Below, one piece after another: positions 13,102 through 34,310 of a stretch of DNA of 64,000 nucleotides. Position numbers and translations under genes: made by a program. Origin of the DNA: an uncultured archaeon. Its GTDB lineage: Archaea; Thermoproteota; Nitrososphaeria; Nitrososphaerales; Gagatemarchaeaceae. Position 1 is the first letter of the stretch. Each line of letters opens with the position of its first letter. The notes below the pieces were generated by a model. It was given only the letters and a program-made list of their open reading frames with translations. It did not search any database and was not told where the DNA came from. The stretch is taken from positions 704,001-768,000 of the forward strand of contig CAWFOU010000001.1 in NCBI GenBank assembly GCA_963817525.1, written 5' to 3'.

Positions 13102-14897
13102 GGGTCGGGACCATGGTCGCGGAGGAGGACTCGGTCTCGGCGGTGGGCAGGGGCGCGGGGAACCTCTTCTCGCGCTTCAAGTGGAGGTTGGCGAGCAGCG
13201 TCCCCATCAGGGTCGACTCCGTCTCCGTGGTCGATGGCAGGTACCTCGCGACGACGCGGTCCAACAACGTCCGGCTCTTCTCGCTCCTCAGGGTCCACCT
13301 CTCCGACTCGGTCGAGGAGCCCAAGCTCGACTACTCGGCCGCCGTCAGGATCACGCTGCAGCACCAGCGGATGAAGGGCCTTCTGGACGGCCTCCACAGG
13401 GCGAAGATACCCTTCCTCTACACGATGATGGTAAAGCCGTCAAACCAGGACGAGGACGAGGAGAACCAGATCTTCGAGTTCGACCTTGTCGTCGGGACGT
13501 GGGTCGACGCAAGAGGGAAGGAGCTGAAGGACGCGAGGTCCGAGTGCGAGCAGAATGCCGCCACCCTCGCGGCCACGCTCTCGGTCGGCCTTCCCAACTC
13601 GTCCGTGAGGCGCCTCACCCGGAGCGAGCTGGCAGGCTTCGCGAAGGCGCTGCTCCTCCCCGAGGAGCCGAAGCTCCGGCAGGTGGCGGACTCGGCCACG
13701 CTGAGCACGCTAGAGTCGTTCGAGGGGCACGGTCCCAGCGTCGCGCCCGCGAGCGTGTCTCCCGACTTTTACCTCCCCAACTCGAAGGAGTCCGGGGAGC
13801 GCGGGGAGGGGATAGTGCTGGGGCGCGTAAAGGCGAGGTCGGGGAGCGCGCACGAGTTCAGGCTCCAGCTGGAAGACCTCAGGCGCCACGTGACGCTCAT
13901 GGGGATGACGGGCTCGGGCAAGTCCACCACGGCGGGGGTGATAGTCCGGCAGGTCGCCGCGATGGGCCTCCCGGTGATGATCCTCGACTGGCACACAGAA
14001 CACGCCGAACTCGTGAAGTCGGTCGGCGGCCAAGTCCTCTCACCCGGGAAGGACGATTTCGCGATAAACCCGCTCGACGTCGGCCCTGCAACGGAGCCAT
14101 CCGAACACATCGAAATGATCACCGACATCTTCTCCGACACGTATCACTTCACCCATCCGCAGGCGTACATGTTCAGGAACGCGCTCCAGCGGTGCCTCGG
14201 AGAATCGTCCGAGCGCGAGGTCCCGACCCTGGCCTCGCTTGTCAGCACCATCGAGAGCTACCCTCTCAGGTCGGCATACGATAACGAGACCAAGGTCGCC
14301 CTCCTGAGGCGGCTGGTGCCGCTGACTCAGGGGAGCGTTGGGAGAGCATTCAACTCTCCTTCTAGCCACACCGTTGATGAGCTCCTGGACAAGGTCCTCT
14401 GCGTCGAACTCGGGCAAATTAGAGACATCCAGTCCAGGAGCATCTTCGCAGACATCCTGATGAAGCTCATCTACGAGACCAGACTCTCGAGGAAGGCGAG
14501 GATGGAGCACCTCATGATGATCGAGGAGGCGCGCAACATCGCGCCGGTCAGGAGGGACGAGGACCCTCCGAGCGTTGGAGAGAGGATGATATCGGAGTTG
14601 AGGAAGTTCGGGGAATCGATGCTCTTCATCGCACAGTTCCCCAGCCAGGTGGCGCCGGAGGTAGTGAAGAACTCCGGCGTGAGGATAATCCACAGGGTGG
14701 CATGGGCGGAGGACCTCCGGCTGGTGCGCGACTCGCTAAACCTCACCCCGGAGCAGCTGGCGTACGTCTCGACCTTGGGCGTGGGCGAGGCTGTCGTGAG
14801 CCTCACCAGGCTCCAGAAGCCGCTCTTGGTTCAGGTCGAGGCGGGAAGCTCTGTCCTGCCCGTGAGGAGAGACATCAGCCTGGCAGAGGAATCGTAG
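13098..14897 (+). CDS. HerA/VirB4-like (DUF87) ATPase; chimeric, 3' half supplied by the integrated element
   Basis: Walker A GMTGSGKS, ILDWHxEH, MMIEEAR Walker B, ELRKFG, IAQFP; GTG overlaps the pilin stop. Confidence 0.92.
   Translation: MRVGTMVAEEDSVSAVGRGAGNLFSRFKWRLASSVPIRVDSVSVVDGRYLATTRSNNVRLFSLLRVHLSDSVEEPKLDYSAAVRITLQHQRMKGLLDGLHRAKIPFLYTMMVKPSNQDEDEENQIFEFDLVVGTWVDARGKELKDARSECEQNAATLAATLSVGLPNSSVRRLTRSELAGFAKALLLPEEPKLRQVADSATLSTLESFEGHGPSVAPASVSPDFYLPNSKESGERGEGIVLGRVKARSGSAHEFRLQLEDLRRHVTLMGMTGSGKSTTAGVIVRQVAAMGLPVMILDWHTEHAELVKSVGGQVLSPGKDDFAINPLDVGPATEPSEHIEMITDIFSDTYHFTHPQAYMFRNALQRCLGESSEREVPTLASLVSTIESYPLRSAYDNETKVALLRRLVPLTQGSVGRAFNSPSSHTVDELLDKVLCVELGQIRDIQSRSIFADILMKLIYETRLSRKARMEHLMMIEEARNIAPVRRDEDPPSVGERMISELRKFGESMLFIAQFPSQVAPEVVKNSGVRIIHRVAWAEDLRLVRDSLNLTPEQLAYVSTLGVGEAVVSLTRLQKPLLVQVEAGSSVLPVRRDISLAEES
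13989..14897 (+). repeat. 909-bp element-borne replacement copy of the HerA 3' half (direct repeat of 33402-34310)
   Basis: Gap-free alignment; 37 of 302 aa differ by manual count; many synonymous changes. Confidence 0.95.
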
Positions 14898-14930
14898 CCC
14901 TCGGTCCGGTAGATCTATCTCGTGGGTCGG
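14831..14930 (-). pseudogene. Decayed C-terminal remnant of adenylate kinase
   Basis: *IYRTEGYDSSARLMSLLTGRTELPAST* versus WIDWTLSYDSSSKLRSLLAGDRELPAST* of 34244-34822. Confidence 0.75.
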
Positions 14931-15063
14931 CGCTTCCTCCCTATCGGCAACACTGCCCGGGCCGCCATCTTGGCGGAAATGGACGTGCTTCCAGCGGCAG
15001 AGGCACTCGCGAAATTCGAGGCCTTTGACAGGCACCTCCGTTCGCAGGTAGGTCCTTGACTCG

Positions 15064-15561
15064 CTAGCTGCTGAACGCAGAGACCACATTCTTCAGTTCG
15101 GCTGATTCCATCGGCGTCGCCAGTGCGTCGACGACGTCCCAGCGTATGGCCGTCCCCAGTCGCCGGCAGAGCGTTTGGACATCCTCGATATCCTGAGGAC
15201 GTGATGCGCGCATCTTTGCTATCAGCAAGGCCTCCAGACACATGACCCGTATCTCGCCCGATCCCACTCGTTTCATGACTGCTGTCGAGAACACCTCAGA
15301 GACCGGAATCCCGCTGACGTCTCTGGTGTACACGTCCAGCTTCACCCCTTCCGGCGTTCTGATCACCTTCTTCCCGCTTTCATGAAAGATGCGGTACCCC
15401 AGCCCTTCGAACTCTTCGTCGCTCAGTGGGGTGGCGAGGGCCAGGTCGATGTCCCGCGTGCGGCGGTACGGGCCGACGTGGCAGATGACAGCGAAGGCGC
15501 CGACGAAGACCACCTCTTTCAGGTCCCGCGAGACCCTCACGGCTATGCTCTCGAGGCTCAC
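15064..15561 (-). CDS. Nucleotidyltransferase toxin (AbiEii-like)
   Basis: VFVGAFAV, RRTRDIDL, LLIAKMRASRPQDIED motifs. Confidence 0.8.
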   Translation of the reverse strand: MSLESIAVRVSRDLKEVVFVGAFAVICHVGPYRRTRDIDLALATPLSDEEFEGLGYRIFHESGKKVIRTPEGVKLDVYTRDVSGIPVSEVFSTAVMKRVGSGEIRVMCLEALLIAKMRASRPQDIEDVQTLCRRLGTAIRWDVVDALATPMESAELKNVVSAFSS

Positions 15562-16199
15562 GCGGGAAGGTCCTCCCTCACCTTCAGGACAAGGTCGGTC
15601 GGGAACTCGCCTCTGACGGAGAGCCGGTCGCCATATAGGAGCTCGATGGCGATGGCGTCGAGCGTGCTCCTCCCGCCGAACGCCAGGCAGTCCAGGTAGA
15701 CCCTCTGGATCTCGTTCTCGAAACCGCCGTCCTCCTTCGGCAGAATCGCCACCCTCCCTTTGCTGCCCTCGGAGAATCCTGCGGACCTAAGGGACTTGGC
15801 CTGCTTGTCGGGGTCTTCAGCATAGACGAAGAAGGTGTGCGGCGTTTGAAATCGGGTGAGTTCGTAGGCACGGTAGTCCAGCGTGACCATCCCCCTCAGG
15901 GACCTCCTGGCGTAGTTGACGTCGCTTTCGTCGTACGCCCGCCCGAAGTACCTGGCCTGCTTCAGCGCCCGGAGAGAGGGCAGCAGGTGGAGCAGCGTCT
16001 GGTAGGGTTGGAACGCAGACGACCTCACCGTGAAGTGACCCCTCCTCTGCGTCTCGGCGGCAAGCCCGAGCTCCTGGAGACGGCGTATGAATCTGTACGC
16101 CGTCGCCCTCGACCCTGCAGGCCCGAAGAGCTCGCTAGCGCGATAGACGGGCTTCTGCCCCAATGCTTGCACTACCGCCAGCGACGGCTCCATTTTCAC
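15558..16199 (-). CDS. wHTH antitoxin / regulator (AbiEi-like)
   Basis: N-terminal wHTH (SRATAYRFIRRLQELGL), C-terminal RVYLDCL; coupled to the NTase gene. Confidence 0.7.
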   Translation of the reverse strand: MKMEPSLAVVQALGQKPVYRASELFGPAGSRATAYRFIRRLQELGLAAETQRRGHFTVRSSAFQPYQTLLHLLPSLRALKQARYFGRAYDESDVNYARRSLRGMVTLDYRAYELTRFQTPHTFFVYAEDPDKQAKSLRSAGFSEGSKGRVAILPKEDGGFENEIQRVYLDCLAFGGRSTLDAIAIELLYGDRLSVRGEFPTDLVLKVREDLPA

Positions 16200-16233
16200 G
16201 AGGAAGCTGGTCTCCTGGCAGCTATATAAGAAT

Positions 16234-16249
16234 GTCTCAATTATGAGAC
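16234..16249. promoter_or_regulatory. Inverted-repeat operator GTCTCA-ATTA-TGAGAC
   Basis: Perfect 6-bp arms directly upstream of the TTATATA box of the TA operon. Confidence 0.6.
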
Positions 16250-16297
16250 TATAAACGGAGAAACCAGCCTATGAGCGCTGCCGCGAGCAAGATGCGA

Positions 16298-17647
16298 TCA
16301 AACGCTTGTTCGCGGTCTCCTAGCGAACATGACTAACAGGATTGCGAAGAGAGCGACCAGTGTTACCCCCGTGCCTATCTCGAACAGAGTGAAGGACCCC
16401 GACTGGCTGTAGTTGGTCAACTTATCTTGGATGCCCAGCATCAAGCTCCCGTTTCCCGTTGTGCTGAAGAAGTAGAGCGTGCTGGGATGACCCGTTCCTC
16501 CCTGGCCGCTGAGACCTGAGGCCGCTGCCGCAAAAGAGCCGTCGCTGGAGACACCCTCTGTAAGGGCTGAGTAAAGTGGATCGCTCCAAATCAGCCTGCC
16601 CGCGGAGTTGATGAGCTCCATGCCGTTGCCGCCCGCTCCCCCGAGCAGGAACAGCCCGTTCGACGTGCGAAGCAGGTTCGATTCCCCGTAGGTGTAGTTG
16701 GCGAGCAGCTTTCCGCCGCCGTCGTAGAAGAGGGCGTTAGAGTCGGTGACGTAGGCGGCGGCCGTGCCGTTCGGAAGCAGGGCCTCGGAGAGCACTCCGC
16801 TGTCGACGTGATGCCCCCACAGCAAGCCGCCCTGTCCCGTTAGCAAGAACACCGTGCCGTTGGTGTCCGAGCTGAAGTTGCCGGCTGCGATCAAAGTTCC
16901 GTTCGGGGTGACAGCGATCGAACTCTCGGGGATCGGAGAGGGCGCTTCGTTAACCAAGATACTGTTCTCGCCGGTACCGAGCGTTGTTATCCCGTTCGTG
17001 CCGACCGGCACGCGGGTTCCGTTCTGCGACACGAAGAAGGTGGGAGGACCCTCCTGAGCGGAGTTGTTCCCGGTGGGATAACCTCCGGCGGTGTAGGTCC
17101 ACACGACCTGGCCTTGCCAGGTGAGCAGGGTGAGCGAGTCTGAGCTAGCGACCGCTATCCTGGACCCGTCAGCTGACATGGTGGCAGACCATGGGGAGCT
17201 GGCGGTCCGGTTCCAAAGCATGTTCCCGTTAGAGTCGAACGCGTACACCTCGGCGTTTGCGTAGACTCCGGCAGGTCCGGTGAGTATCTGATATCCGTTC
17301 GCCTCGATGCGGGAGCCGTTTCCAGATATGGCGACCTCGCCTATTATCCTGCTCGTCTGATGCTCCCACAGAAGGTTGCCGGCGCTGTCGAACAGGAGCA
17401 CCGCTCCGCTGGTCAGGTTGAAACCGACCCCGACGGCGACATAGCTCCCGTTGTCGGTGATCGCCACAGAGTTGACCGTCCCGCTCGTATGGTAAACCCA
17501 AAGCGGGGTCTTTGCCGTGACAAGAGGATTGCCCGCCGTCACGATGAAGAGCGACAAGATCACGAGCGCGGCCAGGGCTACGGCCAGGGTAATTCTGCGC
17601 CGTGTGGGGCCTCTACGGCTCTCGTAGCCTGCCGAGAGGTCAGTCAT
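16298..17647 (-). CDS. Membrane-anchored PQQ/WD-like beta-propeller surface protein
   Basis: N- and C-terminal TM, repeated FDSxGNxLW and VAIxxxGSxxA blades. Confidence 0.8.
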   Translation of the reverse strand: MTDLSAGYESRRGPTRRRITLAVALAALVILSLFIVTAGNPLVTAKTPLWVYHTSGTVNSVAITDNGSYVAVGVGFNLTSGAVLLFDSAGNLLWEHQTSRIIGEVAISGNGSRIEANGYQILTGPAGVYANAEVYAFDSNGNMLWNRTASSPWSATMSADGSRIAVASSDSLTLLTWQGQVVWTYTAGGYPTGNNSAQEGPPTFFVSQNGTRVPVGTNGITTLGTGENSILVNEAPSPIPESSIAVTPNGTLIAAGNFSSDTNGTVFLLTGQGGLLWGHHVDSGVLSEALLPNGTAAAYVTDSNALFYDGGGKLLANYTYGESNLLRTSNGLFLLGGAGGNGMELINSAGRLIWSDPLYSALTEGVSSDGSFAAAASGLSGQGGTGHPSTLYFFSTTGNGSLMLGIQDKLTNYSQSGSFTLFEIGTGVTLVALFAILLVMFARRPRTSV

Positions 17648-17897
17648 GATGAGATTCCCCCTTGTTGGCCATGTGGAGGAACCGCTTGAAGCCAATTCCA
17701 TAGGCGATGCCACCGAAAATCAAGACATCGACAACCAATAGGCACCACGCAAAGATATCTCCGAGATATCCAGTGGGGAACCAAGGGTCGAGTGCGTAGG
17801 CTTCGAGTGCGATTGCCTCCGGGACGAAAAGAGCGATTCCGCCTACTATCGCTATCAACGTAAGAACGTAGAAGTATCTGTTGAATCTAGTCATCAT
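17640..17897 (-). CDS. Small 2-TM membrane protein
   Basis: Two hydrophobic helices; stop overlaps downstream start. Confidence 0.6.
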   Translation of the reverse strand: MMTRFNRYFYVLTLIAIVGGIALFVPEAIALEAYALDPWFPTGYLGDIFAWCLLVVDVLIFGGIAYGIGFKRFLHMANKGESHHD

Positions 17898-18109
17898 TCT
17901 TTCTTCCCGATCTTACAATCTGTCTTCATACGAAGAGCCTTCTCATTAACCATGCCCTGAATGCTGTGTTAGCCCGTTGGCGACGCAAACAGTGGGGTCA
18001 GGAACTCTAGGCAAGTCACCAGAGCCCCCTCTCCTCGGAAGAGAGTTCTTCGCAGCTCGAGTCAGTCCTGAGTGTGACGAGTCTGCAAAGGGAACGCGCG
18101 CTTCGGTTC

Positions 18110-19285
18110 TCACCCTATCTCATTATTCTGGCATGGCCCGGAGATGGTTTGGAGCTGTCCGGAGATGCTCACGGGGAAATACGCGGCGATGGCATAAAGA
18201 CCCTGCTGGCTTCCGGAGACCTCAGCGTAGAGGGTCGGGTCGATTGCCGTGAAGCTTGCGATGGGACCCGAAATCAGCATCGAGAAGCTGTACGTGGCGT
18301 TCGAGTAGGTGCCCAGCTGAATCGCCGGGGCGTCGACCTGCATGAAATTGCTGGGCAGCTTCTGGAACGTCGTGGTTGTCATGTCGTTCACTGCGGCCTG
18401 ATTATTGGGATACCAGGAGCAGGAGTCGTTCGCGGGGAGGGTGGTCAGGTCGGGATTGGCATCGAAGGCCCTCACGATGCTCTCGTTCAACGACAACCCC
18501 GCAGTGAGGGGATGGCTGAAGCTCTGGAGGCTCATCCTGAAAGTGACGTTCTCGGCTCCCTGGGAGGTTGGGAAAGCAGATACGGATACGCCCGTGATGT
18601 TGATCGTCGGGTTGAAGCTCGACTCGGTCTCGAGGTACGTGATGCTCGCTCCCGTATATCCGACGATCTGGGCATCAAGGGAATTGGCGGGACAGCCAAA
18701 GCGCACGCCGAATAGTCCCGGGAAGTCCGTGGAGTTGACCTGGGAAGTCCCGTAGCCGACCGCTAGCGGGACCGGGATGCACATCTGCAGTAGGGAAAGC
18801 CCGTAGAACCCTACCGAGTCCTGTCCAGCCGCAACCGTGTATTCCACCACTGCACGCTGTCCGTTGGCTATCGAGACGCTCGCGGGCAAGGCGTTGATAT
18901 TGACGTTCTGAGTCGGCTGCATTTGCCCGTTGGATTCCCAGGCATTGATAGAGTTGTAGACTGACCCCGAGTAGCTTGATCCCCCGTAGCTGACGCAAAG
19001 AGCCATCGAAGAGTTGGGGCTCATTACGAGCGCCGGGAACGCGACATCCGTGATTTCGGTCCCGTTCGAGAGAGTCGTTCGGTTCGTAATTTGAGAAGGA
19101 TAGGCCTGCGCGCAGGGCGTTGGCGAAGTCGTGGTGGACTGACTCGCCGAAACGGAGGTGCTCGTCCTCGGCGACGCTGAATTCGTCCTTAGGTATTGAG
19201 CCCCGACGAGGCTTGCTCCTATCACCACCAGGAGAACTATGGAAGCCGCGAGCTTGGCATGACTGTGCGACTCTTGGTTCTCCAT
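18110..19285 (-). CDS. N-anchored surface glycoprotein (module A)
   Basis: TM, S/T linker, many NxS/T sequons; similar to 40389-41156. Confidence 0.8.
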   Translation of the reverse strand: MENQESHSHAKLAASIVLLVVIGASLVGAQYLRTNSASPRTSTSVSASQSTTTSPTPCAQAYPSQITNRTTLSNGTEITDVAFPALVMSPNSSMALCVSYGGSSYSGSVYNSINAWESNGQMQPTQNVNINALPASVSIANGQRAVVEYTVAAGQDSVGFYGLSLLQMCIPVPLAVGYGTSQVNSTDFPGLFGVRFGCPANSLDAQIVGYTGASITYLETESSFNPTINITGVSVSAFPTSQGAENVTFRMSLQSFSHPLTAGLSLNESIVRAFDANPDLTTLPANDSCSWYPNNQAAVNDMTTTTFQKLPSNFMQVDAPAIQLGTYSNATYSFSMLISGPIASFTAIDPTLYAEVSGSQQGLYAIAAYFPVSISGQLQTISGPCQNNEIG

Positions 19286-19323
19286 GCTGGCAAGACTTCC
19301 TTGCTGATTCGCTCGGGTTTCTG

Positions 19324-19343
19324 ATTAATAGTTTTGTCCGAAC
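19324..19343 (-). repeat. 20-bp motif GTTCGGACAAAACTATTAAT, copy 1
   Basis: Identical at 25706-25725 and 25868-25887; degenerate at 19869-19888 (+) and 29367-29386 (-). Confidence 0.9.
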
Positions 19344-19348
19344 GGCCT

Positions 19349-19825
19349 TCAAAACCTGCCGTAGTCAGCCGATGTTACATTGGCGAAAGAAAGGTATTGT
19401 ATCGTTCCGTTCCCAACATAGACGTCTGCCTCGATTTGGCCGCTTCCGTTCGGAGAGAAGAATATGATGCGCTCGGTCGGAGCGATGTTGGCGCCCCATG
19501 TATACCCGAAGCTCCTGCTTTGGTCCACGTGATAAGTCAGTCCATCAGCCAACTCTTGGAATTGCGCCGAGCTCTCGACCGCCTGAACCATCGAGTTGCC
19601 GATGCTGGCTACCTGAGAACCTCCGGGGAACCCGGGAGGAGCGGGAGGTGGGGCATCTGAGGAGACTTGACCCGTCTGAGAGGACTCGTTCGCACCGGCA
19701 TGCGTCGATGAGGCAGACTGAGTGGCTCCTGCCGCGGTTCCAATCGATGTCAGACTCGACAGCATGAGCGCGAGCACGACCGACGCGATCGTACCGCTGG
19801 TTCCTACAGGCCTGCCGCGTCTCAT
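19349..19825 (-). CDS. Secreted protein, partner of membrane wHTH regulator
   Basis: Signal peptide; MVQAVESSAQFQELA resembles LLKVAETSSQYQAFA of 28127-28942. Confidence 0.7.
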   Translation of the reverse strand: MRRGRPVGTSGTIASVVLALMLSSLTSIGTAAGATQSASSTHAGANESSQTGQVSSDAPPPAPPGFPGGSQVASIGNSMVQAVESSAQFQELADGLTYHVDQSRSFGYTWGANIAPTERIIFFSPNGSGQIEADVYVGNGTIQYLSFANVTSADYGRF

Positions 19826-19912
19826 AGTGGCGAACCGGCACGAATTCTATTTGAAGGATTGCCATAGCAATCGGACAAAAGTATTTAACAGAAATCGCGG
19901 CTTTAGGAAAGG

Positions 19913-20596
19913 TTGTCCAAGTTCGCGGTCATATTCGCAGTGGCGCTGGGCTTGGCGATTGTGAGCACGGCGTTCGCCGGAGTGCAACTTACCTCCTCTC
20001 CCAATCCGACAGTGCAATCCAGTCTCACTACGACATCCACCACGGCCTCCAACGGAAGCGCGCTGACCGAGGCGGGGGGCGTCACCTTCGGCTTCGGGGC
20101 GAGCTCGAGTTACAATCTGCCCTCGGGGAACTCGGGGCATCCAAGCTCGGTTTTGGGGGTGGTCGTTCAGTTCTTCCAAGACCGTTCTCTGGCTCTCGCC
20201 CCGGGCGGCTGGATTTTCGTAGGAGGTCTGTGGATCTGGCGGGGCAGGATGAAGTCAAGGTGGGAGGCACTCGGCTTCGACTCGGAAGTATTCGAGCTCT
20301 TCGTGAGGATGAGGGGCGGGAAGACGAGGGTGAAGCTCCTCAACTCACTGCTGATACCGAAGGACAGGTTCCAGCTCGCGCAGGAGCTCGGGCTGGACTG
20401 GAAGGCCGTCGACAGGCACATCATGATGCTGGACAAGTTCGGGTTCGTGCGCGAGCAGACTGCGTACGGGCGAGTTAGGATCTACGAACTGACCTCGTCC
20501 GGGAAGATGCTTTTGCAGCTCTTCCAGAGCCTCAACGACGAGGAGAGCGCCGAGAATATTGTTAGAGTTGCCGAGCTTCATCATTCAGAGGCTTAG
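19913..20596 (+). CDS. Membrane-tethered wHTH (ArsR-like) regulator
   Basis: Signal/TM, S/T-rich external part, TM, then MRGGKTRVKLL...LAQELGLDWKAVDRHIMML...YELTSSG. Confidence 0.85.
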   Translation: MSKFAVIFAVALGLAIVSTAFAGVQLTSSPNPTVQSSLTTTSTTASNGSALTEAGGVTFGFGASSSYNLPSGNSGHPSSVLGVVVQFFQDRSLALAPGGWIFVGGLWIWRGRMKSRWEALGFDSEVFELFVRMRGGKTRVKLLNSLLIPKDRFQLAQELGLDWKAVDRHIMMLDKFGFVREQTAYGRVRIYELTSSGKMLLQLFQSLNDEESAENIVRVAELHHSEA

Positions 20597-20675
20597 AAAT
20601 GCTGGTCCAGGACTAGCTCGCGAGCTCGGAGCTGTGGCTGTTGCGGTGCTACCATCCTGAAATCTTGGGACGAAG

Positions 20676-20963
20676 TTGAAATCGCGCAAACATGAGATGA
20701 TAGTTTGGGATTCAAAAGGGCCAGTCCCGATAGCCAAGATAGTGGCGGCGATCAACAGGCTGGAGACACAGGTAGACCTCTACGAGATTGTTGGCGCGAA
20801 ATCGAGCGCGTTGGCTGTCATTCTCGTCCGGCACGGTCTGCTGAAGTCTGAAGAGAAGAGAAGGGCAGAAGCGTTGTCAATAGCGCGGAGGAAATTCCCA
20901 GCCGCGAAGGACGTAATTCTCCATCGTAACGATGACTGGAGTGTCTCGAAATCACAGTCTTAG
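20676..20963 (+). CDS. Hypothetical protein
   Basis: 95-aa ORF filling the gap; no motif recognised. Confidence 0.45.
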   Translation: MKSRKHEMIVWDSKGPVPIAKIVAAINRLETQVDLYEIVGAKSSALAVILVRHGLLKSEEKRRAEALSIARRKFPAAKDVILHRNDDWSVSKSQS

Positions 20964-20980
20964 GTTGATGCGGTGATTGA

Positions 20981-21394: not shown

Positions 21395-21530
21395 AGAAAT
21401 TAGACTCTTCCTAGAAATGCCGGTGGGTTTCGGACTCTTAAGATTTCTGGAACATTGGTCTCCTTTCCTCTCGTCCGGCGGAAGCGTTCCGGTGGGCGGC
21501 GCGAGGGGGGCCCGCGGTACGGCGAAGTGT

Positions 21531-26442: not shown

Positions 26443-26571
26443 GCTGAACTCCTAACCGTCCGCAAGTCTATTGAAGATATAATACTACATGTTAGTACGG
26501 TCGCGAACTCACGTCCTAAAGCGTAGTAATGTATAGCCTGCCAAGCGTGCATAGAGATAAGGTAAGTCGAA

Positions 26572-27234
26572 TTGGCGGAATACAAGAAGGAAATCACCGC
26601 TGCGGTGGCTGTGGCGGTGCTAGCAGCCCTTACGGTGGGCATACTGGCAATCACAGTGTTCCCGAATGGACTTGGTACGACCAGTACCAGTGCCACCACC
26701 CCTGGTGGCTTTGGCGCCCTCGGTATCTCGCCGTTGGCGGGGGAACTATCCGGGCGTGATGTCTCTTGCTCCCTCGCCGGCGGCGTCTGCACCCTGACGA
26801 TAGTGAATAACAGCACAACGCCTCTGGAGCTTGAGACATGTTATGTCCAAGGAATAACAAGTGTCAACGTGATTACTACCACGTACGCCGCAAGTACCGA
26901 ATCGACCACTACGACCTACATCGCTCTTCCAAACGGGACGACAGTAACCGTGACCTCCGTCCCGAGTAGCTCTGTCGCTGCAGCTTCGACGGTCACCGAG
27001 ACTGTTCCGCAATCCAACATTGTCAACGGGACGGTGGGCGGCCCGGCCACGGCGGGCATCCAAGCCAATTCCCAAGTCACCGCGACCTGCACGGTGCCTA
27101 CCACGCAGTTCGCACCTCAGACAGTTGGTTCCGTCGCCAGTGGGGGCTTCAGGGTGAAGCTCGTCAATTCCGCTGATGGCTCCCCTGCTGGCGCGACGAC
27201 CGTGGCTGGGTTCGAAGGCACATGGGGCCCGTAG
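26572..27234 (+). CDS. N-anchored secreted protein
   Basis: TM, T/S-rich, four Cys; divergent from the wHTH gene. Confidence 0.75.
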   Translation: MAEYKKEITAAVAVAVLAALTVGILAITVFPNGLGTTSTSATTPGGFGALGISPLAGELSGRDVSCSLAGGVCTLTIVNNSTTPLELETCYVQGITSVNVITTTYAASTESTTTTYIALPNGTTVTVTSVPSSSVAAASTVTETVPQSNIVNGTVGGPATAGIQANSQVTATCTVPTTQFAPQTVGSVASGGFRVKLVNSADGSPAGATTVAGFEGTWGP

Positions 27235-27440
27235 TAGACGCCCGATGAAAAGCCGTTCATACTATGCCTCCACGAAGTAGGAATCAGAAAGAAGACAGGG
27301 TTCTGCTCAACGGGCGGCTCACCCTTCTCAACTTGCCTCTGTTGGGGTAAGCGCATAGGTGAGCAGGGCAAGCCATTTCTGCTCTCCCCGGGCACCGATT
27401 CCCGCCATCACCCGCCGACGCAACAGCACCGTCAGAACGA

Positions 27441-28022
27441 CTACGGACTGGAATTGAGTTGCGGATTCTCAATTTCGCTCGGTATCCTTTCTCGAAGTTC
27501 TGTTATGAGTTTTAGCATTAGCCTGCCTTGCTCACTTAGCTTGTAGAGCTTCACAGACCCTGATTCCGCATAGAGCGTAATCAAACCAAAGCGCTTGAGC
27601 AAGTCAATTTCTCTGTCTACCTCTTTCCAGTCCAGGCCTGAAAGTTTAGAAAGTTCTGCCCTTTGTCTGGGCTCACCCAGATAGTTTAGAAGCGTCAACC
27701 TCGATTTCGCTCCTCTCATGTTGATCATCAGCTGGAACACATCTTTGTCAAAGCCCAGTTCTCTCCATTTGCGGCTGATGCCTTTCCTGAAGAAAGTCAC
27801 GCCGAAGATAGCCCAGCTGGACGCAGACAATGACAGGGAGTTTCTCCAAAAGGGGAGGAAGACGTTCTGCAGAAGGGTCGGTTGCTGAGGGTTGAATGCT
27901 CCCCAGGTCACGCCTAAAGGACCGCTGCCGGCCGTGGAAAACAGAGAGTAATCGAACGCAAGGATGGTCTCTAATGAAGCGAATGCGAAAAGAATCCAGA
28001 GAGCCAGGCGAAGCTTCTTCAA
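27441..28022 (-). CDS. Membrane-tethered wHTH regulator, paralog of 19913-20596
   Basis: KWRELGFDKDVFQLMINMRGAKSR...GLDWKEVDR versus RWEALGFDSEVFELFVRMRGGKTR...GLDWKAVDR; TTG start inferred from TATA position. Confidence 0.85.
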   Translation of the reverse strand: MKKLRLALWILFAFASLETILAFDYSLFSTAGSGPLGVTWGAFNPQQPTLLQNVFLPFWRNSLSLSASSWAIFGVTFFRKGISRKWRELGFDKDVFQLMINMRGAKSRLTLLNYLGEPRQRAELSKLSGLDWKEVDREIDLLKRFGLITLYAESGSVKLYKLSEQGRLMLKLITELRERIPSEIENPQLNSSP

Positions 28023-28126
28023 AAGAGCTGACTTTTGGACTCGTTTATTATATTTGAGCGTTTCCCAGATCTTTCTGGCAAACCAATACGTATTTTCGAG
28101 TTCCTCTGTAATAGACGACTCTCGCG

Positions 28127-28942
28127 ATGAGCAAACTCGCATGCAAAGGCCGGATTTGGCCATTGGCCGCCATCATAACGCTGATGATGCTCTCGTTGGT
28201 AGCGGCGGCAGCCCTTGCCGCCCCAAGCCCGACGGCATTATCTCTCACACCCGCGTCGGACTCCCAAACCTGCTTTCAAAATATCAACGGCGCCCTAGCA
28301 CAACAAACTGCGTTGAGTCCTGGTACGGCTACCCAACTACTGAAAGTTGCTGAGACCTCCAGCCAGTATCAGGCTTTCGCTCAAGCTGGAGAAACAGTAT
28401 CATTGGTCTCAGCAAGCCCTGCAATTGAGTATGGCATGGCAACGGGATGCGCCGGAATCACAGTAGAAGCCTATACTTTCAGCTTCATATCTGGGGGGAA
28501 GGAGCTCTCAATCGGGGTTGACCCTAGCACAATGAGTGTGGTTAGGACACTTATAGTTCCGGCAGTCAGTTGGGGCGGCGCGCTCAACTCCTCATCGTAT
28601 CTGGGCGATGCAAGCAAAGGGGTTGGCTCCGGGACGGCATCCCTCACGGTCCTCCTCGTCCAAAGCACCTCCACGACATCCACATCCACAGCCTCAGCTT
28701 CTTCGTCGGCGACGATTTCCATCACGGTGAGTAATGGGACGACCACGGTGTATAACGACACTTCACCGTTCGGGGCAGCCACCCCGCCCAAGCCCACCGA
28801 GGTTCAGGCGTCAACTGCCTACCTGATCCTGGCAGCAGTCGCTGTCATCGTGGTCCTGTTCGGTGTGGTGATGTGGCGGAGGAAGGTCGCGTGCAATCAA
28901 AGAAGTCAGCTTAGGCGACCATCAGCGCCCAGCACCCGATGA
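28127..28942 (+). CDS. Secreted protein with C-terminal membrane anchor
   Basis: Signal peptide, S/T linker, C-terminal TM plus RRK. Confidence 0.75.
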   Translation: MSKLACKGRIWPLAAIITLMMLSLVAAAALAAPSPTALSLTPASDSQTCFQNINGALAQQTALSPGTATQLLKVAETSSQYQAFAQAGETVSLVSASPAIEYGMATGCAGITVEAYTFSFISGGKELSIGVDPSTMSVVRTLIVPAVSWGGALNSSSYLGDASKGVGSGTASLTVLLVQSTSTTSTSTASASSSATISITVSNGTTTVYNDTSPFGAATPPKPTEVQASTAYLILAAVAVIVVLFGVVMWRRKVACNQRSQLRRPSAPSTR

Positions 28943-29329
28943 AGGCTTGGTCGTTTGCCATCTGCCGACAATGATCATGGCCAACCCCGCAACGGCTGCC
29001 AAGAACCCCCCGTAGAAGAATTCGTAGTATCCTGCTAGACTGCAGACTCCCATGCACACCGTCTGGTTCAGCAGGAGGAACGCGCCCAAGGCGACTAGCA
29101 ATCCAACCGAGATGACCTTCCATCCCGCACCGATGAGAGCATTGGTTCTCTGACCTGGAGTCGTCCGCCTTCGAAGGAAACCAAGGCAAATGAAGAGCGC
29201 GCCCCCCAGGATGCTCAGCAGCCCCAAGTCTGCGAGAGCGGTGCTAGGATTGATCGGGCCGGCAAAAAAAAGGACCTGCGAGATCAGTCCAAGCGCAATG
29301 AGGAGCAGACCCAATCGGAGAAAGTTCAT
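28922..29329 (-). CDS. 4-TM membrane protein
   Basis: Four hydrophobic helices, CMGVC loop; preceded by a degenerate 20-bp motif. Confidence 0.7.
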   Translation of the reverse strand: MNFLRLGLLLIALGLISQVLFFAGPINPSTALADLGLLSILGGALFICLGFLRRRTTPGQRTNALIGAGWKVISVGLLVALGAFLLLNQTVCMGVCSLAGYYEFFYGGFLAAVAGLAMIIVGRWQTTKPSSGAGR

Positions 29330-29505
29330 CCTTCCACCTCGTGTGCGATTGTGTATCATGTCATCCCTAAATGGCTTTGTCCGAACCTTTCTGGGGTTGT
29401 GTTAACTCTTCGCGACATCGGCCTCTCCTGAGCAGCCGTTAATTGTCAGGACATGATCGGTTGTGGTAACCTAAAGGGTCACGTCTGAACGTTATAACTG
29501 CCGGG

Positions 29506-29757
29506 TCATTTAGCCGGAAGGCATCCGGTCTGACCTTGTATGAACGAATCCCTCGATACATTTGTCAATCCATCTGACAGGAAGAATACAGCGCAATGAT
29601 GAGATGGAACGTAACCGAGTCCAATACCCAACATCAGCCCCGTTGTGGAGACGTAAACTTCAGTCCCCTGCTGATTGTCAAAGAAGAGAGGAAAAATGGG
29701 AAATAGCGTTAGCAGGAGCCCAATAATGACGACGGCCACTGCGATTTTGCGACCCAT
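29506..29757 (-). CDS. Small N-anchored protein
   Basis: N-terminal TM, Cys pair; architecture like 31078-31317. Confidence 0.55.
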   Translation of the reverse strand: MGRKIAVAVVIIGLLLTLFPIFPLFFDNQQGTEVYVSTTGLMLGIGLGYVPSHHCAVFFLSDGLTNVSRDSFIQGQTGCLPAK

Positions 29758-29928
29758 TTCCTCAATGGTAGCTCAGAGTTCCAAAGCAGAGGTTCACCAT
29801 TAGTCTTTCTTTGAGGCGCCACAGGTTTTATGTCCAGAGGAGTTAGGAGAACCCTTTCTGGTGCGCCTTCAAGCGAGCGTATCTGCTTCAGTTCGGTATT
29901 GCCGCGCGGATTGTTCTGAGCGATTGAC

Positions 29929-30489
29929 CTATTGAACAGTCACGCTGACTATCGCCTGCGGAAGATTCTCGTAACCTACCACGACCTGGTAGATTCCGGG
30001 CGCTGACGCACCGAACAGGAAGCTGAACTGCAATGGTCCGTCGTAGGTCACGTTTGAGGAATAGAGGGCGTACGTGTCGTTAATGGCCTGGGCGTGGTAC
30101 TCCGGAGGAAGGTCTGCGAGCAGGAAGCTGCTCGGGGCCTCCAGGGTGAAGTTCGAGATCCCAGACCCCGCGATGTTGAGCTTTACGCAGACCCCGCCTC
30201 CCTGGCTGACCGTCATCTTGAGTGGAGGGGGAGAGAACTCCGAGCTCGAGGATGAGAAGGACCTGCTCGATGTAGTTAGGTCAGGCGTGGCAAAACTCGT
30301 AAGATTGAATGATGCACATGTGATCTGCCCGGTCACAGTGTAAGCTGTCTGGGTGTAGAGGCTTTGAGAGCTCGTGATGGTGCTCTGGCTCGATTTGGAT
30401 GGGCTGAAAGCGAGCAGGAGAGCGATGCCACCGACCAATATGACGAGAACGACGACGCCTAGCACGGCGTAGCGGTTCCTGCTCGGCAA
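29929..30489 (-). CDS. N-anchored secreted protein
   Basis: TM, S/T linker, Ig-like C-terminal APGIYQVVV; flanked by CGATTGAC repeats. Confidence 0.7.
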   Translation of the reverse strand: MPSRNRYAVLGVVVLVILVGGIALLLAFSPSKSSQSTITSSQSLYTQTAYTVTGQITCASFNLTSFATPDLTTSSRSFSSSSSEFSPPPLKMTVSQGGGVCVKLNIAGSGISNFTLEAPSSFLLADLPPEYHAQAINDTYALYSSNVTYDGPLQFSFLFGASAPGIYQVVVGYENLPQAIVSVTVQ

Positions 30490-30523
30490 CCCGATTGACT
30501 AGATGCGGAAATCCCTTATCAAT

Positions 30524-30805
30524 CTAGCGGGCAGGAGATTCTGTGAGATCTCCTGCGTGGAGCAGTTCTGTCGGTGACGAATGGCCTCTGTGCAATCCAT
30601 CGACTAGCAAAGCAATTCCGGCAAGGGAGGTAGCCCATACGGTTACGATGGATTCTTCCAGGGCCCGCAAAGAGATGATGGGGGCGAGGCCAACGATAAG
30701 CAAATTCCCGGACCCCAGACTACTGAGAGCCAACAGCAGCACCACAAGTCTCCATACGCCATACCCCAAAAGGGCGAACCCCGCCACAACCTCTAATCGA
30801 TTCAT
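30524..30805 (-). CDS. Small membrane protein
   Basis: Hydrophobic 93-aa ORF with GGTGAGG SD-like sequence upstream. Confidence 0.55.
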   Translation of the reverse strand: MNRLEVVAGFALLGYGVWRLVVLLLALSSLGSGNLLIVGLAPIISLRALEESIVTVWATSLAGIALLVDGLHRGHSSPTELLHAGDLTESPAR

Positions 30806-30939
30806 CCCCTCACCTGCGGGTTCTGGCGCGTCTTATGGACTTCCCGCCTTTTTGGGTTCCGCTCCGAAAGCGGGGGGATAGGCAAGGGTGCTCCGATTGG
30901 GGGATGGTTGCCAAAATCGCGGGCGCGGACCAGCGGACA

Positions 30940-31074
30940 TGGTCAAACTCAAAGCCACATGCGGCTTTGGAAGGCCAGACTCCGGCACAGAGGGCGGGCG
31001 TGGGCGTCCAAGGGAAGAACAAGTGGTTAGCCATCCTGACTGAGGCCGTAAATAGAGCGGAGCTCACAACTTGA
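30940..31074 (+). pseudogene. C-terminal remnant of archaeal IS6-like DDE transposase
   Basis: KPHAALEGQTPAQRAGVGVQGKNKWLAIL matches the PHxxLxGxTPAxxAG...NKW tail. Confidence 0.75.
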
Positions 31075-31077
31075 GCC

Positions 31078-31317
31078 ATGCGAAGAATAGTGGTCTTGTT
31101 CGTGCTGGTCGTCGCACTCGGCGTCTTCTTCTTCCTTCCTTTCTATTCCCCACCCGGTCCCTGCAACCGGCCCGGCGTGATATGCGCGGAGCAAGTTAGA
31201 CCAATTGAATCAGCTAGCTGCGCGGTCACGGGGGTCGGGACCTACATCCCCAGCAATCTCTACGCCCAGCCCGTAATTGTCCACTACCGTCTTGGCTGCA
31301 TCAACTATGCAAAGTGA
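31078..31317 (+). CDS. Small N-anchored Cys-rich protein (IS passenger)
   Basis: MRR plus TM plus four Cys; starts 3 nt after the transposase stop. Confidence 0.7.
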   Translation: MRRIVVLFVLVVALGVFFFLPFYSPPGPCNRPGVICAEQVRPIESASCAVTGVGTYIPSNLYAQPVIVHYRLGCINYAK

Positions 31318-31436
31318 AGCGCTAGGGGCTCGCCCCGCTGTGAGCGTCACTTATCCCCCCAAGCGGAGCGGCGAATTGAATCCCCCACTCTACGGAGCGG
31401 AACCCCTTTTTGTCGTGAGGTGGTGCAACTCGGGAC

Positions 31437-31634
31437 TCATGGCCCGTGCCAAATAGCGAAAGTGGCTTTACAATCGTTGCATTCCAATCCATGCCCGCAG
31501 AAGCGACTGGTTCCCCAATGAACTTTTCCTTCGACTCCGACTCCCGAATGGAAGACGAGGTTGGGTTTCCCGCATTTGGGACAGATGGCGTGAATTGTCG
31601 TGCCACACTCAGGACAAGTTAGACTCGCGCTCAA
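31437..31634 (-). CDS. Small multi-CxxC zinc-ribbon protein
   Basis: CPECG, CPKCG, CNDC. Confidence 0.6.
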   Translation of the reverse strand: MSASLTCPECGTTIHAICPKCGKPNLVFHSGVGVEGKVHWGTSRFCGHGLECNDCKATFAIWHGP

Positions 31635-31760
31635 CTTGTTTTTCCGTCGCCGACTCCGTTGCCCGCCTGATAAGTTCCTTCCACTTTATTTCCTCAAGGT
31701 CAAGGTCTAACCCCGCGACCTGAGTGGGAGTCTTTCCATCCAGGCCGAGCGTACAAATCC
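31609..31760 (-). pseudogene. Second IS6-like transposase C-terminal remnant
   Basis: LGLDGKTPTQVAGLDLDLEEIKWKELIRRA. Confidence 0.7.
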
Positions 31761-32163
31761 ACTGGGACAGGGCCCGAACCCGGTCAGCAGCCACAATTCA
31801 CTTTGTCAATCGGTCTTCACGCCGGGTGATTTTCGGACCGTTAGTTAGACATCCACGATGAAATCAGAGGACATGGCGAGAAGGGGCTTCGTGCGGGTCG
31901 AGGTGTCTGGATATCCCGGGCGGTCCTCTTTGCGCTTGAGCGGATCTCCAGAGAGCCCCAACCTCAGCTAGAACCATCCTAGGTGGCACCTGGCGCCCGA
32001 GCCCGGGACACGAATTCTTTTCCGTGTCAGTGAGTGAGCCCGTGGAATTCGGTAGTCCCCAGATTGGGCCATCCTACCGAGTCAACGGTCCCAAGGGCTC
32101 TCTGCCGTTAAAAGCCGCACAGCGCTTCTGGCGCGTTCACCTTGGCGGAAAAGCAGGAGTTCG

Positions 32164-33360
32164 TCAGGATCCCGAGGTCGCAGCTCGAGGCCTGGATCGA
32201 GGAGCTGTCTGCACTTCGGGAGGGGCTCGCCCCGGCGCAAACTCCCTCATCTGCTCCTCAAGGCGGGCGATCCTCTCGCCGTACTCGGCCTTGACCGCCT
32301 TTTCCTTCTCGTCCCGCTCCCTCTCCCTCTCCTTCAGCAGCAGCAACTCGAGCTGGATGTCCTTCCTCTCCTTCTCGCGCTCCTCCTTCTCTTTGGTCAG
32401 CTCCTTCCTCGCCTGCTCCGCCTCGGATATCGTCAGGAAGGGTACCGCCTTCAGGTACTCCTGCTCCAGGTGGTCGAGCGTCGGCTTGTAGTAGGCCATC
32501 CTGTGGCCCAGGAGCACCTCCTGGTCTTCCCACCTCAGCCCCGCCCTGCTCATCTGCGTCTTCGCGAACTTCCTGAACCCGTGGGCGCTCTTGAACTCGC
32601 CCTTCACGTCCGTCGACTTTAGCCCGGAGCAGAGCCAGGCGCGGCGCAGGATGTTCTTGACGACCATCCCCGCGAGGGGGTGGGCTATGTCCGGGGCGAT
32701 CTTCTGCTTGTCGTACCTCACGCCGTAGTCCCACTTGTCCCTGACCAGGGGCGACTCTGGATTGACCTTCTCCCCCACCAGCTCTCTCTCCGCCCTGTAC
32801 CTCCTCCAGGCCTCCGCCGCCTCCGGCGAGACGAGGGTGACGTACTCTTCTGGCTCGCCCCTGTAGATGGTGATGGCCCCGACCCCGGACTCCCTCAGCA
32901 AGAGGTGCCCCACCTTCAGCCAGGACCAGGCCCCCACCCTGAACCCGCCCGAGGCCATCGCGAGGACGATGAAGGCCAGCCGGTTGTCCTGCCCCTCGAG
33001 CACCTTCCTCACCTCCTCCACCGTGGGCGCCCTGTCCACGCCGACGTACCTCACGGGCGGCACCTTCCTCCTGATGATCTTCCAGTCGAGGTTGTACCCG
33101 TACTCCTCGCAGAAGGCCTTGACGTTGGAGACCCTGTTGGAGATCGTGGCCCCCGTGAACTTGTCCCTGCTGGCGATGATGTAGCCGACCAGGAGCTCCT
33201 TGGCCTTCGCCGGGTCGAGGGAGAGGAATGAATCAGGGTCGGGGCCAAGGACCTTCTTGATGCTCGACTCGTAGGTGACCCTGGTCGCCTCAGACCTGAG
33301 GCTGGCGATGAAGGCCTCGAACTTCGTCGTCGCGGTCGTGGTGGCGGTCACGGAAGACAC
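32164..33360 (-). CDS. Tyrosine recombinase/integrase with C-terminal coiled coil
   Basis: SGGFR, HGFRK, LLGH and YY catalytic set intact; start GTG 33360 or 33351, about 40-50 bp from the right core. Confidence 0.95.
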   Translation of the reverse strand: MSSVTATTTATTKFEAFIASLRSEATRVTYESSIKKVLGPDPDSFLSLDPAKAKELLVGYIIASRDKFTGATISNRVSNVKAFCEEYGYNLDWKIIRRKVPPVRYVGVDRAPTVEEVRKVLEGQDNRLAFIVLAMASGGFRVGAWSWLKVGHLLLRESGVGAITIYRGEPEEYVTLVSPEAAEAWRRYRAERELVGEKVNPESPLVRDKWDYGVRYDKQKIAPDIAHPLAGMVVKNILRRAWLCSGLKSTDVKGEFKSAHGFRKFAKTQMSRAGLRWEDQEVLLGHRMAYYKPTLDHLEQEYLKAVPFLTISEAEQARKELTKEKEEREKERKDIQLELLLLKERERERDEKEKAVKAEYGERIARLEEQMREFAPGRAPPEVQTAPRSRPRAATSGS

Positions 33361-33401
33361 AAGGTGCCCAGAGTATATTAGAACCAATTCTTGGGATAAA
33401 A

Positions 33402-34310
33402 TGGCACAACGAGCACGCGGAGCTGGTAAAGTCGGTCGGGGGGCAGGTCCTCTCGCCGGGGAAGGACGACTTTGCGATAAACCCGATGGACATGGGGCCG
33501 GGGACGGAGCCCGCGGAGCACGTGGAGATGGTCACGGACATATTCTCCGACACCTACCACTTCACCCACCCCCAGGCCTACATGTTCAGGAACGCGCTGC
33601 AGCGCTGCCTGAGCGAGGCGGCGGACAGGGAGGTCCCGACGCTGGCCTCCCTCGTGGGCACGATAGAGAGCTATCCCCTAAGGTCGGCGTACGACAACGA
33701 GACCAAGGTCGCGCTGCTGAGGAGGCTCGTGCCCTTGACCCAGGGGCACGTCGGGCGCGCGTTCAACTCCCCCTCCAGCCACACGGTGGACGAGCTCCTC
33801 GACAAGGTCCTCTGCGTCGAGCTCGGGAACATCAGGGAGACGCTCTCCAGGGGCATCTTCGCCGACATACTCCTGAAGCTGGTCTACGAGATGAGGGTAG
33901 CGAGGAAGGCCAGGATGGAGCACATCACGATGATCGAGGAGGCGCGCAACATCGCGCCCGTGAGGAGGGAGGAGGACCCGCCGAGCGTTGGGGAGAGGAT
34001 GATATCGGAGCTCAGGAAGTTCGGCGAGTCGATGCTCTTCGTCGCCCAGTTCCCGACCCAGGTGGCCCCGGAGGTCGTCAAGAACTCGGGAGTGAGGATA
34101 ATCCACAGAGTCGCCTGGGCGGAGGACCTCAGGCTCGTGCGCGACTCGCTCAACCTCACCCAGGAGCAGCTCGCGTACGTCTCGAACCTGGGCGTAGGGG
34201 AGGCGGTCGTGAGCCTGACCAGGCTGCAAAAGCCGGTGCTCGTTCAGGTCGAGGCGGGAAGCTCCCTGTCGCCCGCGAGGAGGGACCTCAACTTGCTCGA
34301 AGAGTCGTAG
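33402..34310 (+). pseudogene. Displaced native 3' half of the HerA-like gene (no Walker A, still open)
   Basis: Homology starts exactly at TGGCACA (WHNEHAEL...); host-like GC3; overlaps the intact adenylate kinase. Confidence 0.92.

Follow-up and report, generated by a model that had tools for sequence, protein, structure and literature searches.

The question raised by the locus described here is how a gene can be entered near its middle by an integrative element and still be left whole. Integrative elements restore the gene that they split, and what they restore usually amounts to between a few and a few dozen codons at its 3′ terminus. In a 64,000-nt stretch of DNA from an uncultured archaeon of the Gagatemarchaeaceae (GenBank assembly GCA_963817525.1, contig CAWFOU010000001.1, positions 704,001 to 768,000; hereafter the window), the gene for a HerA/CedD-like ATPase is joined to a low-GC insert of ~19.4 kb (13989 to about 33408), and a second copy of the gene's 3′ half stands at the far end of this insert. 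The reading that we favor, with a rough probability of 0.85, is that the insert is a cryptic integrative element that entered by tyrosine-integrase recombination at a core inside the LDWHNEH motif of the gene, with a spare half carried by the element keeping the gene whole.

Junctions, gene halves, and empty sites

The anatomy and polarity of the locus can be read directly from the DNA. On the + strand of the window, the heptamer TGGCACA occurs at 13989 and 33402 only, and an ungapped direct repeat of 909 bp begins exactly at each of these cores and ends at a stop codon (Table 1). When the two copies were compared in 30-nt steps from the core, 20–28 of 30 positions were identical within the repeat and 6–10 of 30 in the four steps 5′ of the core; the first step past position 900, which comprises the last codons, the stop, and ~20 nt beyond, showed 22 of 30, and from offset 930 the value was 12 of 30 or less. 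The homology between the copies thus runs ~20 nt beyond the stop. Of 906 nt compared, 160 differ between the left and right copies, as do 37 of 302 amino acids, with nonsynonymous and synonymous distances (dN and dS) of 0.074 and 0.885, respectively, and a dN/dS of 0.083. The left copy is in frame with the host 5′ half, and the two form a single open reading frame (ORF) of 599 aa (13098–14897). The cores, the gap-free copies, the 37 differing residues, and the many synonymous changes had all been listed in an initial annotation made from the sequence alone, and all were reproduced. Both strands of the window together hold three occurrences of the heptamer, against 4.45 expected by chance; the heptamer by itself is therefore not significant, and its weight rests on its position.

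The product of the split gene was assigned to the HerA/FtsK superfamily of P-loop ATPases by a match to Pfam DUF87 (PF01935, E=1.4e-15, above the cut-off). Its top NCBIfam model by far is the equivalog CedD (NF053655, E=2.3e-57, residues 239–581), and the gene is called CedD-like rather than CedD because the score of 194.9 bits, though that of the best family, falls far short of the cut-off of 600. In the alignment to S. solfataricus HerA (4d2i, E 2.4e-11), GSGKS is paired, DWHTEH is aligned with DYHGEY, and MMIEEA with VIEEAH; we take GSGKS to be the Walker A motif and MMIEEA/VIEEAH to be the Walker B motif. By this alignment, the junction core falls within the ATPase core, between Walker A and Walker B, and the placement of Walker B in the swapped half by the initial annotation is borne out. 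The name "DNA-transfer motor" given there to the protein exceeds the evidence, since the CedD match that speaks for it is sub-threshold. The epithet "pilus" has in its favor the adjoining T2SSE-type ATPase gene and two small membrane-protein genes, and nothing else behind it, so that this label, too, goes further than the evidence.

Several features distinguish the two 3′ halves. The GC content at third codon positions (GC3) of the right copy matches that of the 5′ half and that of the left copy is lower (Table 1), while overall GC is 0.51–0.62 between the copies versus ~0.65 in the flanks, which marks the insert as foreign. In 17 of 19 loci of relatives, herA is followed directly by an overlapping, convergent kinase gene, as is the right copy, and this is the ancestral order; the exceptions are G017 and G020 (whose contig ends there), and in two of the 17 (G018 and G021) herA matches in two pieces. 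The right copy shares 94% of its amino acids with the G006 orthologue, and the left copy is at most 92% identical in amino acid sequence to any row of the alignment. In ten windows of 90 nt, identities of the right copy to four natives were 0.84–0.91, the range found among the natives themselves, with GC3 of 0.87–1.0 throughout; GC3 of the left copy was lower from the first such window onward. Because its GC3 matches that of the 5′ half, its overlap with the kinase gene is that of 17 of 19 loci, and it is native-like in all windows, the right copy is judged to belong to the host, the left copy having arrived with the insert. This agrees with the initial annotation, which had named the right copy the native half and had proposed a search for relatives with contiguous herA and kinase genes.

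Empty sites were also observed directly. The uninterrupted host attachment site that had been predicted (attB; CTCGAC-TGGCACA-ACGAGC) is present in relatives, with similar flanks, and the core TGGCACA was found in 15 of 16 aligned intact genes, that of G017 being TGGCACG; loci L016, L018, and L020, with gapped or split matches, are excluded from this 16-row alignment. As a separate observation, three assemblies of the same genus that consist of few contigs (G018:C1, G021:C1, and G015:C7; loci L018 and L020) have herA split over two or three overlapping matches or interrupted by in-frame TGA codons, which points either to pseudogenes or to indel errors in long-read assembly.

Nucleotide and protein trees place the left copy in the same nine-row sub-clade of the host genus as the right copy, but beside G017 and G012 (support 91/94 in the nucleotide tree; sister to G017 in the protein tree, Table 1). 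The dN/dS of the left copy against every native is 0.06–0.09, which is the range between natives. Its terminal branch is the longest of its sub-clade (0.15), no change falls at a position invariant in all native rows, and its five unique changes within the sub-clade are conservative. The low dN/dS and the unchanged invariant positions, together with the GC3 shift, suggest that constraint went on while the fragment traveled with the element. The dN/dS and phylogeny checks put forward in the initial annotation thus gave purifying selection on the left copy and trees that assign it to the element.

Table 1. Features of the ATPase locus in the window, in order of position
Feature	Position	Strand	Basis or remarks
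T2SSE-type (PilB/FlaI-like) secretion/pilus ATPase gene, first of the cluster ending in the target gene	9551..11491	+	Pfam PF00437, E=4.6e-21
Two small host genes, about 239 and 212 aa (unkA, unkB)	11488..12842	+	Hydrophobic segments; positional homologues in G041 and G276
Host 5′ half of the HerA/CedD-like ATPase gene, 297 codons, with Walker A (GSGKS)	13098..13988	+	GC3 0.936; Pfam, NCBIfam; alignment to 4d2i
Left core (attL), TGGCACA	13989..13995	+	In the W-H codons of LDWHxEH; same core at both junctions in G041 and G276
Element-borne 3′ half, 302 codons and stop, with Walker B (MMIEEA)	13989..14897	+	GC3 0.828; sister to the G017 copy (93/92)
Cargo: low-GC, mostly ORFan genes, several winged-helix regulators, one beta-propeller protein, promoter-like repeats	14898..32163		GC 0.51–0.62; repeat families D3, D4, D6
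Tyrosine integrase gene	32164..33351	-	395 aa from GTG at 33351 (P0002); open frame reaches 33387
Integrase-side attachment-site arm, ~50 nt	33352..33401		Conserved with the G041 element (alignment)
Right core (attR), TGGCACA	33402..33408	+	Core-anchored comparison
Displaced native 3′ half, 5′-truncated, reading frame intact	33402..34310	+	GC3 0.937; 94% amino acid identity to the G006 orthologue
AAA_18/PRK03839-type putative (adenylate) kinase gene	34244..34822	-	Convergent; Pfam PF13238 and NCBIfam NF003012 below or near cut-offs

The integrase, its cargo, and related loci

The ORF beside the right core, annotated from the start as an intact tyrosine integrase, probably begins at the GTG given in Table 1, ~50 nt from the core. 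It matches PHROG phrog_1 "integrase" (E=5.3e-7), and a profile of 20 homologues matches the archaeal XerA structures 4a8e (1.9e-7) and 5hxy (1.4e-6). At least 90% of the 20 aligned homologues share residues R138, H257, R260, H283, and Y287; their assignment as catalytic follows the alignment to XerA, which is weak over the C-terminal segment taken by itself. In addition, many homologues carry a precomputed PF00589 assignment and the source name "site-specific integrase", and the names borne by homologues put the host lineage in the Nitrososphaerota. By similarity and by its R...H-x-x-R...H...Y residues, the protein is classed as a putative tyrosine recombinase of the phage-integrase type. The recurrence of one core at the junctions of G000, G041, and G276 speaks indirectly for a role in joining the attachment sites of element and host. 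In SSV-type integration, as outlined in PMC7253208, the attachment site of the element (attP) lies inside the integrase gene, so that this gene is split; a "suicidal" integrase of this kind was ruled out here, as the integrase ORF is uninterrupted and all of it stands to one side of the core.

The arm between integrase and core is conserved as well. Over 97 genomes of the family, a pattern of arm plus core matched in G000 (the genome of the window), G225 (the same genome as G041, with the same contig and coordinates), G276, and G315 only, and a reversed control gave no match. No close relative of the integrase was found in a single-protein scan of genome contigs or in viral contigs, and a profile scan of metagenome contigs reached 43% identity at best; metagenome proteins P0003–P0015 are 61–90% identical to it. 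The initial annotation had proposed that homologous integrases would adjoin a 5′-truncated herA. This holds for the 71%-identical integrase of G041 and not for integrases at 38–47% identity (G338, G234, G056, G192, G010, and G015), which do not adjoin herA. Since these more distant relatives sit elsewhere, specificity for herA is shown only for the integrase clade of at least 71% identity, that is, to 2 of 401 genomes of the order.

G041, which belongs to the family of the window but to another genus and was reached via L047, provides the closest comparison. Its integrase abuts the same core, and after the core come a 5′-truncated herA, starting from the same W-H codons, and then the kinase gene. 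The herA 5′ half lies 78.4 kb upstream and ends in CTCGAC-TGGCACA-TTTAG..., which reads LDWHI-stop; no second herA 3′ half is present in the G041 genome. Thus, herA is truncated in G041 because the 78-kb element carries no spare half. The 7-bp core is the same at both junctions, the ~50-nt arm between integrase and core is conserved with that of the window, and both herA halves are still open. In the 10 of its 34 ORFs of at least 300 aa that were scanned, the insert was found to encode TraG/VirD4-like, AAA_10/TraG-P-loop, T2SSE, and T2SSF proteins, a type III restriction-modification pair, and a DEAD helicase. By this gene content, it is best described as an integrative-conjugative element (ICE)-like, possibly composite, gene-disrupting element.

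A third layout is found in G276, of the genus of G041. Its herA, in the order T2SSE-unkA-unkB-herA, is whole, and the attached 3′ half has a GC3 of 0.75 versus 0.86 for the 5′ half. Downstream lies a lower-GC insert of 7.3 kb with two Na+/H+ exchanger genes and a P-type ATPase gene, in which no integrase match was found, and on its right side stand the arm, TGGCACA, a native-type 3′ half, and the kinase gene. This displaced half is decayed: its alignment falls into two blocks, ~315 nt are gone, and the frame is broken. G276 would thus represent the other endpoint of such insertions, with the integrase lost, the imported half kept, and the native half decaying. In the trees, its attached half groups with the native half of G041, that is, with its own genus (100/100). 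Since the spare halves cluster with the natives of their own host genus, there were at least two same-genus captures, or else the halves were refreshed by gene conversion. In G017, of the genus of the window, the first ~110 nt beyond herA resemble the left end of the element in the window; DNA of GC 0.52 without the kinase gene follows, and the contig ends 883 nt past the stop. This contig shows the same left junction as the window.

Three further loci were noted in passing. On G315:C24 (L227–L230, L232), a 32.5-kb low-GC contig, positions 21387–21411 form an attP-like site composed of an integrase-type arm, TGGCACA, and a far arm closely like that of the left junction of G041. A decayed second arm with a TGACACA-ACGAG site lies 6.7 kb from it (28100–28124), and homologues of three genes of the window's element (26005–27234) are also present; the contig holds no related integrase, and ARAGORN found no tRNA near the sites. 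In metagenome contig L196 (5704–5919), a herA 3′-half fragment of 52–71 codons starts from the same W codon, with a core that reads TGGCGCG. It has unrelated sequence on both sides and lies 4.5 kb from a 31%-identical integrase, and is probably a decayed junction remnant. In G001, of the window's genus, L043 (C89, last 2.5 kb) carries a deoxyhypusine synthase gene, a TFIIB-like gene, and then herA from ~35 nt 3′ of the core (about residue 308), and the rest of the 3′ half and the kinase gene stand at another contig end (L042, C10 end); L043 yielded neither a 5′ half nor T2SSE, unkA, or unkB. This layout may reflect a deletion, for example by aberrant excision that took the left flank.

The cargo of the window's element is of another character than that of G041. 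Among 20 element ORFs scanned with Pfam, PHROGs, and PADLOC, no transfer, capsid, replication, or defense family was matched; these ORFs were taken by length from a six-frame list of GC-rich DNA, and some may not be genes. Such matches as were obtained are to winged-helix (weak) and beta-propeller families or are marginal only. The statement of the initial annotation that the element has no transfer genes of its own stands at this scope, and an integrative-conjugative element was rejected as a description of the window's insert, as no VirB4/VirD4-type ATPase was matched among the same ORFs. No leftover of a far arm like that of G041 was seen in the element of the window.

Within the cargo, a motif ending TTGATTAATAGTTTTGTCCGAAC recurs at 19310–19343, 25692–25725, and 25854–25887 (79–82% identity over 34 nt) before divergent element ORFs, and paralogous stretches pair 19218–19264 with 23900–23946 and 21532–21601 with 25750–25819. 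These look like promoter or operator regions and duplicated gene modules. Elsewhere in the genome, at ~26–151 kb of G000:C7, paralogues of the element's 391-, 227-, 145-, 220-, 408-, 471-, and 612-aa ORFs are clustered, and a 528-nt stretch there is 87.5% identical to DNA 3′ of herA in G017; this region may be a second, larger related island.

Mechanism and competing explanations

In the mechanism proposed for the window, the integrase would exchange strands within TGGCACA, between Walker A and Walker B. One arm of attP would be the 909-bp diverged copy of the gene's 3′ half, so that integration would join the host 5′ half to the element's 3′ half in a full-length ORF of 599 aa and would leave the native 3′ half stranded and promoterless beside the integrase. 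The far arm of the ancestral attP was probably non-herA, as in G041 and G315. An imprecise excision ending ~20 nt past the herA stop would then have swapped this far arm for the 3′ half of a related host, as in specialized transduction, the source of the capture being an ancestral disruptive element of the G041 kind. After the capture, every integration would rebuild the gene; excision, if still occurring, would return the native allele, and the two states would hence differ at 37 residues. The chimeric ATPase is presumed to be functional.

Several points weigh against integrase-mediated entry or against parts of this scheme. The identity shared by the junctions is short, at 7 bp only. As a single sequence, the integrase matches Pfam PF00589 with E=0.0091, under the curated cut-off, and no excisionase was recognized among the 20 element ORFs scanned (Pfam, PHROGs, and PADLOC). 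The low dN/dS of the left copy could largely date from the donor host before capture, a pre-capture divergence that is inseparable here. The genome is a metagenome-assembled genome (MAG) with an estimated contamination of 8.75%. Finally, Logan contigs of four soil metagenome runs from one study, at ~3x depth, were compared over 13700–33699: none of the listed contigs bridges the right junction, and no excised circle, attP, or re-formed attB was found in these contigs, which drop rare forms. A loose end at 14414 in run X1, which goes on into right-copy sequence, was considered as a recombinant and rejected, being read as a right-copy contig partly placed on the left copy at the 90% threshold.

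It is possible, at well under even odds, that the element is a fixed fossil, one that integrated as described and then lost excision, the spare half being the working allele of the host and the native half heading for decay. G276 gives this alternative a precedent, being a case of this layout without an integrase and with a ~315-nt deletion and frame breaks in the displaced half, and the absence of a joint across the element in any of the four runs, like that of a recognized excisionase, is what it would predict. In the window, however, the integrase is full length with conserved catalytic columns, both cores are intact, and the displaced native half is without stop or frameshift and as native-like as its orthologues; moreover, contig data are incapable of showing rare excision.

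Homologous (Campbell-type) recombination with a herA fragment of the element, or an in-situ duplication combined with an unrelated insertion, would dispense with an integrase acting at the core. A repeat of 909 bp at ~82% identity could sustain such recombination, and the heptamer is no rarer in the window than chance allows. Recombination within the repeat nevertheless predicts mosaics, with a host-like 5′ part in the left copy and an element-like 5′ part in the right copy, and neither copy was found to be mosaic in the ten 90-nt windows, which favors a crossover at the core. Furthermore, the same core bounds the junctions of G041, where no half is duplicated, and those of G276, and the integrase-side arm beside the core is conserved across genera. 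The left copy also resembles the copies of G017 and G012 more than it does its right counterpart, which speaks against a recent in-situ duplication. We regard these variants as very unlikely.

Least probable of all is an assembly artefact in which the herA alleles of two strains were joined with an unrelated low-GC contig: the estimated contamination of the MAG and the tendency of repeats of this length to break or mis-join assemblies (the contigs of G017, G020, and G001 end in or beside herA) leave some room for it, but short-read contigs from two of the soil runs cross the left junction with 0 differences (X2 record 9, 13936–14440; X3 record 17, 13731–14070), the independent assemblies G041 and G276 show the same junction types, core, and arm, and the element is covered in 28–30 of 30 bins in all four runs. 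The bridging contigs do not count as independent support, since they come from one study that is possibly the source of the assembly.

With entry by the integrase retained as the preferred explanation, a wider and more doubtful picture can be drawn, in which a single codon pair in the ATPase core of a CedD-like DNA pump is the sole target of one integrase lineage, and this lineage occurs in three states: a self-transmissible, ICE-like form that disables the pump; a small element without recognizable transfer genes that repeatedly captures the host 3′ half, and so keeps or alters the pump that it may need for spread; and an integrase-less remnant in which the imported half is permanent. We offer this picture tentatively and think it unlikely to hold in full. 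The idea of dependence raised in the initial annotation, of an element without transfer genes preserving or retuning the machine that it uses, is speculative and accords with one contrast only, between the window's element and the ICE-like insert of G041. If true, the three states would amount to a natural domain-swapping device by which Walker-B/C-terminal halves of a DNA translocase pass from species to species, and the resident element would determine in what state a DNA-exchange machine is found.

Neighboring genes and comparison with known systems

The cluster that ends in the target gene keeps its order, T2SSE-unkA-unkB-herA, in G041 and G276, two genomes of another genus. A Kyte-Doolittle scan found four and two hydrophobic segments in the products of the two small genes, respectively, and a Pfam scan of these (about 239 and 212 aa) gave no match. 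On the other side, the 3′ end of the kinase gene overlaps the end of the native herA by 67 bp. Farther upstream in the window, a tRNA-Leu(CAG) called at 89 nt (2071–2159) stands beside a 180-aa minus-strand ORF with a LAGLIDADG_3 match (E 1.8e-5), within 2071–2775. On the minus strand at 5897–7996, a deoxyhypusine synthase ORF is open over 699 aa, with the DS domain at residues 406–689 only; as the G001 orthologue has 327 aa, the long stretch before this domain probably reflects no more than frames staying open in GC-rich DNA.

Beyond the single locus, the layouts form a natural series—a disruptive ICE-like relative, a spare-part form, and a decayed remnant—that shows the gain of fragments and their fixation as a host allele. 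They point to a concrete route by which site-specific recombination in archaea could replace part of a gene horizontally, and they tie mobile elements, in a way open to testing, to a CedD-like ATPase that possibly translocates DNA. In addition, a 5′-truncated herA beside an integrase offers a simple marker for delimiting elements in a poorly studied soil lineage.

With respect to the target, CedD is described as an FtsK-HerA-superfamily ATPase essential for DNA import in Sulfolobus (PMC11823120). The VirD4-like CedD/TedD of the crenarchaeal Ced/Ted import systems are the proteins to which the best NCBIfam match of the target gene leads, yet at the sub-threshold score given above, and the genes beside the target, for a T2SSE ATPase and two small membrane proteins, are not among the known ced genes. 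Phrase searches of the literature for herA as an integration target returned nothing relevant.

The elements collected from thaumarchaea by Krupovic et al. (2019) share with the window's element the phylum, the tyrosine integrases, and very short attachment (att) sites. They are reported to include cryptic integrated elements and ICEs, with att sites as short as 8 bp (median 17 bp) and 14 of 68 elements in protein genes (PMC6563490); for archaea, shared att sequences of 8 to 243 bp are given (PMC8371274). A 7-bp core is in keeping with the short sites of the former set. According to the text of the former source, all 14 protein-gene elements lie in 3′-distal regions, and NitEve-E2 rebuilds the end of its ORF with 8 nt replaced (PMC6563490), whereas the window's element lies mid-gene and replaces 909 bp. 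A HerA-like ATPase is not among the targets named in that text, Table S2 and three "conserved hypothetical" targets being outside this comparison (PMC6563490).

Islands in tRNA genes follow the same general gene-restoring rule, as set out in PMC4383910. In tRNA and tmRNA islands (the Islander principle), tens of bases of a near-identical RNA gene are involved; here, it is a diverged half of 302 codons under purifying selection of its own. Mid-gene insertion is known from SPbeta in spsM and skin in sigK, presented as gene-disrupting elements with regulated excision (PMC5499854, PMC5025042). The G041 relative shares this layout, with herA truncated and both halves intact, whereas the window's element leaves its gene undisrupted, and excision under developmental or other regulation is not known for it.

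The nearest known parallel is e14, a cryptic prophage in the icd gene of Escherichia coli, likewise a tyrosine-integrase element inside a protein-coding gene that supplies the C-terminal end, with a displaced C-terminal pseudogene fragment at the far end. In the account of PMC13626634, which cites Hill et al. 1989, icd extends into the prophage and excision joins the gene with the displaced icdC to give a second functional allele; the excised form differs by two substitutions (D417E and D429E) and a short duplicated stretch (PMC13626634). Allele swap by integration and excision is thus already known, and since the principle is that of e14 and icd/icdC, current ideas are not overturned. The two systems differ in that e14 has a bacterial host and known excision, whereas the present element is archaeal and known from sequence alone, and in that e14 replaces a short C-terminal end, whereas 302 of 599 codons and 37 residues are exchanged here, with the junction inside the ATPase core. 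Overall, what the window and its relatives add to the e14 principle is this scale, the position in the catalytic core, a CedD-like target, and evidence for repeated capture and for a disruptive sister element.

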